A DNA stretch of 5,892 nucleotides from a virus (lineage: Duplodnaviria > Heunggongvirae > Uroviricota > Caudoviricetes). Of this stretch, positions 1,815 through 2,888 are shown piece by piece (position 1 is the first letter of the stretch; each line of letters starts with the position of its first letter). The notes beneath the pieces are model-generated. The model was given only the letters and a program-made list of their open reading frames with translations. It was not told the DNA's origin and made no database searches. The DNA lies in IMG/VR virus record IMGVR_UViG_2541047163_000021. The stretch is one strand, 5' to 3'. The position numbers and the translations under genes were made by a program.

Positions 1815-1854
1815 ACAATAAAAAACTGTTTTTGTGTCAACAGTTTTTAATTGT
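1815..1854. promoter_or_regulatory. Operator-like palindrome (left site): ACAATAAAAAACTGTT - 9 nt - ACAGTTTTTAATTGT
   Basis: 16-nt left arm (1815-1830) is identical to the left arm of the site at 2850-2865; the right arm differs from the other site at one base. The spacer carries a perfect TTGACA on the minus strand (1835-1840). Lies between the toxin terminator and the early-left genes, i.e. the OL-equivalent position. Confidence 0.5.
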
Positions 1855-1864
1855 TGTTTTGGGC

Positions 1865-1887
1865 AAAAAAATCCCTCGAAAGAGGGA
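1865..1887 (-). terminator. Intrinsic (rho-independent) terminator ending the regulator-antitoxin-toxin operon
   Basis: On the minus strand: stem TCCCTC / GAGGGA (plus 1872-1877 and 1882-1887) with a 4-nt loop, followed immediately by seven T (plus-strand A7 at 1865-1871). Starts 18 nt after the toxin stop at 1906. Confidence 0.6.
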
Positions 1888-1905
1888 GTATGAAAATTGT
1901 TCAAC

Positions 1906-2193
1906 TCAGATAGAGAAGGGAAATTGTCGCCGAGAATGTGTCACGCTTACAATCTCAATGCTTGAAGCAGCTACTCTGTACAGGATTATGTAGTTAGGGT
2001 GGGTCACGATCTCTCTCAATCCAGAAACCCGTTCGCTTGGTGGATATAAGTACGGATGCTCAGATAGAGGTAATACCGATGTTTCAATGCGTATTTTTAG
2101 TCTACGTGCTGCCGGTGGGTTCTCCTTGGCGATGTAAGTTATGATCTGGCGCAAATCATCGCGAGCAGACGGTAGCCATAAAATGGGTAACAT
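1906..2193 (-). CDS. parE: ParE/RelE-superfamily type II toxin, 95 aa
   Basis: Translation MLPILWLPSARDDLRQIITYIAKENPPAARRLKIRIETSVLPLSEHPYLYPPSERVSGLREIVTHPNYIILYRVAASSIEIVSVTHSRRQFPFSI matches the ParE/RelE pattern as I recall it (W..A..DL..I..YIA..NP.AA ... G.RE ... Y.I.YRV ... IEI..V.H.RR). Its ATG overlaps the antitoxin stop by one base (TAATG at 2191-2195). Confidence 0.85.
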   Translation of the reverse strand: MLPILWLPSARDDLRQIITYIAKENPPAARRLKIRIETSVLPLSEHPYLYPPSERVSGLREIVTHPNYIILYRVAASSIEIVSVTHSRRQFPFSI

Positions 2194-2384
2194 TACTCGC
2201 TCTTGTTAGTTACAGCAATTTGAGCAATAAGATTTTCCATTTCAGCCATTACCTCGTCATGTGGAATTGCGGGGCGAGTGTCTGCAAGGCTTGACGTTAC
2301 TTTAGTGCGCAACCATTCGTTGTAACTGTTTTCTTGTTCGGTAGTTTCGAATTCTGAAACTATCGGAGAAAGGGCTGTACCCAT
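2193..2384 (-). CDS. paaA: Small acidic antitoxin, 63 aa, PaaA2-like partner of the ParE toxin
   Basis: Translation MGTALSPIVSEFETTEQENSYNEWLRTKVTSSLADTRPAIPHDEVMAEMENLIAQIAVTNKSE. AGGAG lies 7 nt upstream of the ATG. Size, acidity, position directly upstream of a ParE-fold toxin and stop/start overlap are the antitoxin signature; the 63-aa length and motif resemble PaaA2 of the E. coli O157 paaR2-paaA2-parE2 system, recalled from memory and not verified. Confidence 0.7.
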   Translation of the reverse strand: MGTALSPIVSEFETTEQENSYNEWLRTKVTSSLADTRPAIPHDEVMAEMENLIAQIAVTNKSE

Positions 2385-2411
2385 GGCATAACTCCTCTTC
2401 TTGTACTGTGG

Positions 2412-2813
2412 TCACGCCCGGCGGCTTTTTTGTGCCGCCAGCCACCTAGCAATGGTTTCTTCCATTGATTTTTTCTTGTCTTTGATTTCTTGAAGCATTT
2501 TTTCTTGGTCTTCCTCAGGAAACGCACTAAAAGCTTGGAGCAGTTCGCGTTGGCGAGGACCAATTTTCATCGTGTCAGGGGTGAAAATTTGCTCACACTC
2601 TTCAGGAGGCAATAAAAACCAATGCAATGGATGCCCTGAAACCTCAACCAGTTTATCCAAACTTGAGGCTTTAGGTGTAGCCTTACCGCTGACCCATTGT
2701 TGAACAGTTTGTTGTGTCACACCAATTCTACGGGCAAGCTCAGCCTGGCTCCATCCAGTTTCCTGAAGAAGCTTGCTGATTCTGTACATAGATACTTCTA
2801 GGGCGCTCATCAT
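2412..2813 (-). CDS. paaR: HTH (XRE/cI-type) transcriptional regulator at the prophage repressor position, 133 aa; PaaR-like third component of the TA operon
   Basis: Translation contains a classic helix-turn-helix (SQAELARRIGVTQQTVQQWVSGKATP) near the N-terminus. Divergent from the Cro-like gene across a palindrome-bearing intergenic region, and 27 nt upstream of the antitoxin on the same strand. No S24 peptidase (Ala-Gly / Ser...Lys) autocleavage domain is apparent. No SD precedes the ATG. Confidence 0.8.
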   Translation of the reverse strand: MMSALEVSMYRISKLLQETGWSQAELARRIGVTQQTVQQWVSGKATPKASSLDKLVEVSGHPLHWFLLPPEECEQIFTPDTMKIGPRQRELLQAFSAFPEEDQEKMLQEIKDKKKSMEETIARWLAAQKSRRA

Positions 2814-2849
2814 TATTCAATTTTACAGGTAAATACTGTTAAAAGCATC

Positions 2850-2888
2850 ACAATAAAAAACTGTTGATTGCATACAGTTTTTTATTGT
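2850..2888. promoter_or_regulatory. Operator-like palindrome (right site) in the divergent promoter region: ACAATAAAAAACTG - 11 nt - CAGTTTTTTATTGT
   Basis: Perfect 14-bp inverted arms (2850-2863 and 2875-2888) with spacer ttgattgcata. Sits 37-75 nt upstream of the regulator ATG (2813) and 34 nt upstream of the Cro-like ATG (2922). Shares its arm sequence with the site at 1815-1854. Confidence 0.55.

Follow-up and report, generated by a model that had tools for sequence, protein, structure and literature searches.

Based on comparisons of a 5,892-nt stretch of tailed-phage DNA (IMG/VR record IMGVR_UViG_2541047163_000021; this whole stretch is the window in what follows) with related prophages, we propose that two AT-rich palindromes in it, at 1815-1854 and 2850-2888, are very probably the OL/PL and OR/PR modules, i.e. 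the left and right operators with their promoters, of the immunity region of the cryptic lambdoid prophage Sp4, and that they consist of 15-bp repressor sites of the phage 434 type. The window matches E. coli O157:H7 chromosomes at 100% identity; in Sakai it is annotated as 'prophage Sp4, lambda-like phage', which we take to be CP-933M, and the region is carried by about 510 of 5426 complete E. coli genomes. The anatomy, the conservation and the family relationships described below are read from the sequences themselves. The locus is undescribed, yet most likely an ordinary member of a well-known type of switch.

The palindromes had been noticed in a preliminary description of this DNA through a 16-mer, ACAATAAAAAACTGTT, found exactly at 1815-1830 and 2850-2865 and each time facing an inverted partner, and both the positions and the gaps hold. 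The left partner (1839/1840-1854) has one mismatch over 15-16 nt, with a gap of 8 nt for 16-nt arms or 10 nt for 15-nt arms, and the right partner (2874-2888) matches at 15/15 positions across a gap of 9 nt. With up to three mismatches allowed, the 15-mer ACAATAAAAAACTGT has four matches in the window, forming two inverted pairs, where 0.34 are expected and none of 200 shuffles reaches four. The palindromes bracket, as described, the genes of the regulator (2412-2813), an antitoxin (2193-2384) and a toxin (1906-2193), all on the minus strand, and the suggested OL/OR-like placement is borne out, the sites lying at OL/PL and OR/PR of a lambdoid immunity region. The view of each element as a single long palindrome instead of tandem operators is not supported. 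Every arm is a whole 15-bp site of the form ACA(A/G)-N7-(C/T)TGT, and one further, unpaired copy of the motif class, ACAGGTAAATACTGT, which the same description had overlooked, is present at 2825-2839. This gives three sites at OR, with centres 25 and 24 bp apart and all within the 108-bp region 2814-2921, and two at OL:

1815-1829: OL1, predicted 15-bp operator, ACAATAAAAAACTGT on the plus strand and ACAGTTTTTTATTGT in the orientation of PL, 18.9 bits
1840-1854: OL2, predicted 15-bp operator, ACAGTTTTTAATTGT on the plus strand, 17.4 bits
2825-2839: OR3, predicted 15-bp operator, ACAGGTAAATACTGT, at about -12 to -26 of the repressor promoter PRM, 18.0 bits
2850-2864: OR2, predicted 15-bp operator, ACAATAAAAAACTGT, upstream of the PR -35, centre at about -44 from the PRM start
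2874-2888: OR1, predicted 15-bp operator, ACAGTTTTTTATTGT, within the PR spacer

The scores derive from a weight matrix trained solely on OR sites, those of six relatives, without the window. By this matrix exactly these five sites stand out, at 17.4-18.9 bits, ahead of a next best of 9.8; in first-order random sequences 0.12 sites of at least 12 bits are expected per window. The bare pattern ACA-N9-TGT leads to the same places, as five of its six matches (1.41 expected) fall in the two control regions, starting at 1815, 1840, 2825, 2850 and 2874. The OL1 region is identical over 17 nt to OR1 together with the first two bases beyond it. When a third OL site was sought with the matrix, the best candidate was at 1980-1994 inside parE, with 9.8 bits at chance level, and the matrix search likewise finds two OL sites, not three, in every relative.

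Hexamers of the forms TTGAYN and TAnnnT interleave with the 15-mers and define the predicted promoters:

2864-2869, plus strand: PR -35, TTGATT, starting at the last T of OR2
2888-2893, plus strand: PR -10, TAGGCT, starting at the last T of OR1, 18 bp after the -35
1840 to 1835, minus strand: PL -35, TTGACA, in the spacer between OL2 and OL1
1815 to 1810, minus strand: PL -10, TAGATT, its first T being the last base of OL1, with a predicted start near 1803
2825 to 2820, minus strand: PRM -10, TAAAAT, ending 6 nt before the repressor ATG; the PRM -35 is weak

The -35-like hexamers in the spacers, TTGACA (1835-1840, minus strand) and TTGATT (2864-2869, plus strand), had been pointed out before, correctly, with the remark that no good -10 could be located. 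The predicted -10 hexamers TAGGCT and TAGATT, 18 and 19 bp after their -35 and of the conserved form TAnnnT, now supply what was missing for PR and PL. Transcription from PR is predicted to start near A2900, which leaves 22 nt to the ydaS ATG, and GGAGG stands at 2911-2915. Since the PRM -10 ends 6 nt before the ATG, the repressor mRNA is predicted to be leaderless, starting at the A of the ATG (2813). We infer these promoter assignments from conservation and from data on a paralogous system (PMC8630535). Two other candidates for a -10 were set aside: TATAGT at 2899-2904 for PR, where a close E. coli variant has CTGTAG and which is not conserved in relatives, and TATTGT inside OR1/OL1, which lies just 13-14 bp from the -35.

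For the assessment of conservation, the window was compared with the loci of repressor homologues in Salmonella (80% identity), in Raoultella, Klebsiella, Pluralibacter and Morganella (65-70%), and in Rahnella, Pectobacterium and Arsenophonus (44-63%). The operator layout is retained in eight related prophages, ranging from Salmonella to Arsenophonus, with arms that are only partly complementary, and seven relatives with 44-81% identical repressors have three 15-mers at OR. In the six enterobacterial relatives that share the same recognition helix (65-81% identity, loci L054-L063), the OR sites stand at fixed positions from the repressor ATG: the ATG is followed by 6 nt, a -10-like hexamer fused to OR3, a 10-nt gap, OR2, the stretch TGAYNNNNN, OR1 and then an A, so that TTGAYN and TAnnnT start at the last T of the operators. 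The Arsenophonus locus, with a 44% identical repressor, keeps the order of the sites with slightly different spacing. OR3 has the lowest matrix score of the sites in most relatives.

On the left side, a matrix made without any OL site finds exactly one more pair of sites per relative locus, spaced 23-25 bp. In all eight relatives this pair is found beyond the repressor operon, with the layout operator/-35/operator/-10 directed leftward; in the window, the OL sites at 1815-1854 come past the operon terminator and before DUF1391/ydfB/dicB. The distance between OL and OR among the relatives ranges from 547 to 2101 bp, and the genes in between differ, PaaA/ParE being found solely in E. coli and unrelated open reading frames elsewhere (in L054, L056, L058, L059 and L063 these encode 100-306 aa, and none is PaaA or ParE). 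As these genes differ between relatives, the toxin-antitoxin pair is to be regarded as cargo in a variable slot.

The promoter elements are kept alongside the operators. The PR -10 has the form TAnnnT in all eight relatives (TAGTCT, TATTCT, TATCCT, TAGTAT, TAATAT, TAGCCT, TATTTT), and the PL -10 has it in seven of the eight, Arsenophonus having TTAAAT; across all modules, the PL -10 is TAGATT in five cases and TAGCAT, TAATCT, TAATGT and TTAAAT in one each. At the PL -35 position the relatives keep TTGAC(A/G/T/C), and the PR -35 TTGA(T/C)N is kept in seven enterobacterial PR modules, with TTGAAA in Arsenophonus. The PL spacer measures 19 bp in the window, 18 bp in other E. coli and 17 bp in several relatives. 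All six close relatives (L054-L063) have a PRM -10 (TAAAAT, TATAAT or TAGAAT) at 6 nt from the ATG.

Close E. coli variants have their substitutions between OR2 and OR1, in the spacer, and past OR1, the three 15-mers of OR remaining unchanged; in OL1 a single central position is substituted, and the OL spacer has one indel. The preliminary description had held that sequence and not hairpin potential is conserved, and the relatives agree with it, as their arms are complementary at 11-14 of 15 positions while every arm keeps ACA...TGT. Conservation thus acts on sequence rather than on hairpin potential, which indicates protein binding.

The protein most likely to read these sites is the 133-aa regulator. 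Its helix-turn-helix (HTH) domain has the 434 repressor as best solved relative (E 3e-5), and its recognition helix TQQTVQQW aligns with TQQSIEQL of 434, in which, by the textbook assignments, the glutamines make the contacts that read ACAA. In the alignment of the repressor family Q34, Q35 and Q38 never change, whereas position 39 may be Q, K or R. Relatives with R or K in place of Q39 have sites with other ends; those of Rahnella, for instance, have the ends ACAC...GTGT, ACACATTTTCCGTGT at OR and ACACATTTAACGTGT at OL. The Cro analogue encoded by ydaS has the helix AQQTVWQW, and a QQ(T/S)V start is common to repressor and Cro analogues across the relatives, with the exception of L061 (QQVV). 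Stx-phage cI proteins, whose helix is SAQSVQYW, served as a negative control, and no ACA-N9-TGT sites were found at their OR; the idea that these proteins (HTH 45-55% identical) share the operator was dropped on account of the different helix and the absent sites. In 434 itself, operators of the form ACAAT-N4-ATTGT keep their outer bases constant, while affinity is tuned by central bases that are not contacted, A-rich centres being favoured (PMC1636474).

The regulator is a CI analogue with a C-terminal part unlike that of lambda. The repressor has no S24 peptidase match in Pfam, and its AlphaFold model (mean confidence score, pLDDT, 82) has five helices in the HTH domain, then a disordered linker and, at the C-terminus, a hairpin of helices (residues 86-131). 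A Foldseek search with the model returned generic XRE/SinR/434-type HTH matches, none of them informative on the C-terminal domain.

From this layout we infer binding, promoter use, the order of occupancy and any looping between OL and OR, and propose the following switch. One dimer of the 133-aa CI-like repressor would occupy each 15-mer, and the YdaS-type Cro analogue, with its similar helix, would bind the same sites. Repressor on OR1 and OR2 would block PR and with it ydaS, ydaT and the replication genes, and repressor on OL1 and OL2 would block PL and with it the DUF1391/ydfB/dicB operon. OR2 appears placed to activate PRM, as it is centred about 44 bp upstream of the leaderless repressor start, the position from which lambda CI activates PRM. 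OR3, over the PRM spacer and -10, would shut PRM off at high repressor levels or on binding of the Cro analogue. The antitoxin and toxin genes would be cargo of the repressor operon in the slot of lambda rexAB, the operon ending at its own terminator before OL. The operators of a module are mirror copies of a slightly asymmetric site, with an outer ACAAT/ACAAG half, an A-rich centre and an inner ACAGT half; the palindromic look of the modules would result from this mirror arrangement, which is perfect in this lineage.

If correct, this provides a precise predicted operator and promoter map for the Sp4/CP-933M immunity region, present in roughly 1 in 10 complete E. coli genomes, which would control a ParE toxin-antitoxin pair and a dicB-type cell-division-inhibitor operon. 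The toxin-antitoxin genes would then occupy a variable cargo slot of a repressor operon and not form a self-regulated module. The general understanding of such switches is unchanged by the map.

Several observations weigh against this interpretation. A consensus promoter scan of the window missed PR, PL and PRM alike, the interleaved hexamers included; the PR -10 TAGGCT is weak and the PL spacer of the window measures 19 bp. Relatives with K39 have two different site types, and covariation between helix and operator is therefore not simple. As the site is 15 bp and not 14 bp long, the geometry of the repressor dimer must differ from that of 434. The dyad within each 15-mer comprises the outer three bases and position 5 alone, and beyond the invariant ends no dyad covariation within the 15-mers was detected relative to shuffles. 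No paper containing the 15-mers or the locus tags was found in the library of papers searched. Finally, the mirror symmetry of the modules exceeds that of shuffles, which leaves room for a pair of sites to be read as one unit.

This last point concerns the alternative that each palindrome is a single binding unit, both 15-bp arms of which are read as half-sites by a dyad-symmetric repressor tetramer or octamer. We consider it unlikely. In its favour, the arms match at 15/15 positions at OR, at 14/15 at OL and at 15/15 at OL of the related locus L002, and the paralogous repressor PaaR2 is octameric in solution (PMC8630535). Paired cells amount to 86% in the mirror arrangement of 18 PR and PL modules as compared to 79.5% in shuffles, none of 500 shuffles being as high, and eight positions change on both sides; the test overstates the significance, since the sequences are related. 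The identity at the variable positions 4-12, with one site inverted, is 6.5/9 within a module, barely above the 6.0/9 with the other module of the same phage or the 5.6/9 between phages, as against 4.25/9 in direct orientation. Judged from these alignments, the mirror signal is a family-wide shared polarity and not a partner-specific matching, which argues against selection for a hairpin. The palindromic look is not pure accident either, because the operators of a module have a conserved mirror-image polarity; its cause may be a symmetric tetramer or constraints of the promoter (for instance an A-tract ahead of the -35 together with a T-rich spacer). Against a single unit stand OR3, a lone 15-mer without partner that is kept in all relatives, and the ACA...TGT ends that each arm keeps for itself, as fits a 434-type dimer site. 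Reading the palindromes as units and reading them as paired dimer sites differ mainly in the degree of cooperativity. A more specific version, which we regard as rather improbable, is that mirror pairing around the -35 is selected, with the PaaR-type repressor acting as a dyad-symmetric tetramer whose inner and outer subunits read ACAGT and ACAAT/ACAAG, respectively, and with two tetramers bridging OL and OR as an octamer. If true, this would set the switch apart in architecture from lambda and 434, whose operators stand in tandem and are oriented independently of each other.

The remaining explanations are less probable still. Should the sites be real protein sites of another factor, the candidates would be the YdaS Cro analogue alone, YdaT, or a host nucleoid protein preferring A-tracts; the sites are indeed AT-rich with A-tracts, the TTGATT of the OR spacer equals one YdaT half-site, and the helix of the Cro analogue is similar. 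Yet the one YdaT motif of the window lies outside the palindromes, at 3171-3188, it is the ACA/TGT ends of the sites that are invariant and not the A-tracts, the repressor helix is of the 434 type that reads ACAA, and the site ends differ where the repressor helix of relatives differs, so that we deem another factor very unlikely. It is highly improbable that the palindromes act as nucleic-acid structures, be it bidirectional terminators, RNA hairpins or DNA cruciforms. They do fold as RNA, at -20.7/-20.2 kcal/mol for OR and -13.5/-14.2 kcal/mol for OL (z scores of -2.7 to -5.8), but their AT-rich stems lack a U-tract in the transcribed direction, and a terminator scan passes over them and calls instead a canonical terminator at 1887-1872, which already closes the operon shortly ahead of OL. 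None of the three promoters, given the predicted starts, transcribes the OR palindrome, and relatives lose up to 4 of 15 pairs yet keep the ACA/TGT ends, their complementarity in cis being hardly above the value for the other module. The cryptic state of the prophage, with its frameshifted integrase and insertion-sequence (IS) insertions, might suggest a functionless duplication remnant or a chance repeat, a notion to which we give almost no credence: four copies exceed chance (0/200 shuffles), the region is kept in the E. coli genomes counted above with substitutions that avoid the OR sites and touch OL1 at one central position, and the architecture is common to several genera. We thus retain OL/PL and OR/PR modules with 434-type dimer sites as the preferred explanation.

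The closest studied system is paaR2-paaA2-parE2 of CP-933P (Sp12), in which PaaR2 is CI-like, YdaS Cro-like and YdaT CII-like (Jurenas et al., mBio 2021; PMC8630535). There, PaaR2 and YdaS footprint the divergent intergenic region and repress PR, PRM, and a PL beyond the toxin-antitoxin genes; the paaR2 mRNA is leaderless, and a homologue on CP-933M was mentioned, not studied (PMC8630535). The exact recognition sequence of the repressor could not be defined in that work (PMC8630535). Sp4 resembles CP-933P in gene order, in the PaaA-ParE cargo behind a short HTH repressor, in the divergent ydaS-ydaT pair and in a YdaT operator at the end of ydaS, and, as far as can be predicted, in a second promoter beyond the toxin-antitoxin genes and a leaderless repressor start. 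ParE and PaaA of the window are clear paralogues of ParE2 and PaaA2. The repressor, in contrast, differs in sequence: PaaR2 starts with MQKKE, unlike the protein of the window, and was not among the repressor homologues found. The CP-933P repeat consensus GTTTAGTAA is absent from the control regions of the window, its sole near-match, at 1308-1316, being intragenic and at chance level. The intergenic region is 108 bp long compared to 97 bp, and OL has two sites as compared to three. Given the missing repeats and the different start of PaaR2, the window is to be seen as a sister system with another immunity specificity. Because of its cleaner sites and 434-like recognition helix, the Sp4-type family should be an easier model than CP-933P.

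With phage 434, Sp4 shares the Gln-Gln...Gln helix, conserved outer ACAA/TTGT-like ends with variable AT-rich centres, a helix motif common to repressor and Cro analogue, and three OR sites. It differs in that its sites have 15 bp instead of 14 bp (ACAA-N6-TTGT), i.e. one extra central base pair, with A or G at position 4, in that its repressor has a short helical hairpin in place of the RecA-cleavable S24 C-terminal domain, and in that OL has two sites instead of three. The likeness to lambda lies in the divergent PR/PRM, three OR operators with centres 24-25 bp apart, close to the lambda spacing, a second cluster over PL beyond the repressor operon, cargo and then a terminator before OL, and a leaderless repressor mRNA (predicted in Sp4). 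The lambda details used here are in part general knowledge and in part those given in the CP-933P study. Unlike in lambda, the Sp4 operators have no sequence similarity to the 17-bp lambda sites, the C-terminal domain of the repressor is dissimilar, the -35 lies between operators rather than inside OR2, and OL has two sites. The Gifsy-1/Gifsy-2 repressors and DicA of Qin are 28-31% identical to the Sp4 repressor over most of their length, are of similar size and also lack a peptidase domain. Gifsy phages are induced via antirepressors.

Sp4 adjoins yccA. From left to right it comprises a frameshifted integrase, exonuclease, dicB, ydfB and DUF1391, followed by the leftward ParE, PaaA-type and HTH regulator genes; to the right of the regulator lie the rightward YdaS-like and YdaT genes and the replication genes, and further on Q, lysis genes and IS elements. 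HTH regulator, PaaA2-family antitoxin and ParE toxin form one leftward operon, divergent from the ydaS-ydaT pair. In a DNA search of a phage collection the conserved leftward leader was the sole match, and the immunity region was present in no sequenced phage there. The annotated features are:

1872-1887, minus strand: intrinsic terminator of the repressor-antitoxin-toxin operon, TCCCTC-TTTC-GAGGGA followed by seven T, between parE and OL
1906-2193, minus strand: ParE-family toxin (Pfam ParE_toxin, E 3e-17; ParE2 structure 5cw7, E 3e-36)
2193-2384, minus strand: PaaA-type antitoxin (Pfam PaaA2, E 6e-19; PaaA2 structure 3zbe, E 1e-20)
2412-2813, minus strand: 133-aa CI-like repressor of the PaaR type (Pfam HTH_3; in Sakai ECs_1069, 'phage repressor protein')
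2922-3194, plus strand: YdaS-family Cro analogue (Pfam YdaS_toxin, E 8e-10; helix as given above)
3171-3188: predicted YdaT operator in a PRE-like region at the ydaS/ydaT junction, TTGATTCATGAAAATCAA, an exact TTGATT-N6-AATCAA
3178-3603, plus strand: YdaT, CII analogue (Pfam YdaT_toxin; CP-933P YdaT structures 3c4r and 8bt1, E 4e-83)

The terminator folds at -9.6 kcal/mol (z score -3.7) and is also present in the loci L002 and L003. YdaT of the window is nearly identical to the crystallised YdaT of CP-933P, which footprints an OM site next to PRE. That work is also the source of the motif and of its location where ydaS ends (Prolic-Kalinsek et al. 2023; PMC9986795). TTGATT-N6-AATCAA occurs once in the window, as compared to 0.04 occurrences expected.

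In E. coli GF60 (L004), which has a different immunity region, homology with Sp4 ends exactly at the left edge of OL (window 1790-1815), a break that, in terms of the aligned sequences, is the usual mosaic recombination boundary of an immunity module. Just past the predicted PL start, the leader is rich in C and A and poor in G (1775-1803, minus strand: ACACCAACCACCCACCCCGCCCC), and a CAHCAAC-type motif in it is kept in all relatives including Arsenophonus (L002, L054, L056, L058, L059, L060, L063, L009); this motif could be a rut-like or antitermination-related element. The PL leader of about 190 nt up to DUF1391 is conserved in more than 2200 E. coli genomes. Between ydaT and the replication gene, in antisense, lies a gene annotated as 'ECs1072 family phage-associated protein' (3810-4301, minus strand; 456 nt in RefSeq), which has no Pfam match of its own. 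Inside the replication-protein gene are five exact AGGGGCTT repeats in 11-bp steps, in two clusters, and then two tandem copies of AAGAACAGGAACAGGA:

4529-4547, 4785-4814 and 4822-4861: repeats in the replication-protein gene

By their sequence arrangement these repeats look like candidate origin iterons inside an O-like gene, as in lambda. At the left end of the window, Rfam matches below threshold to DicF (198-233; 28.6 bits, gathering score 48) and STnc100 (37-186) occur on the minus strand within 37-233, together with a 19-nt inverted repeat at 32-50/170-188, which fits a dicB-type operon downstream of PL.

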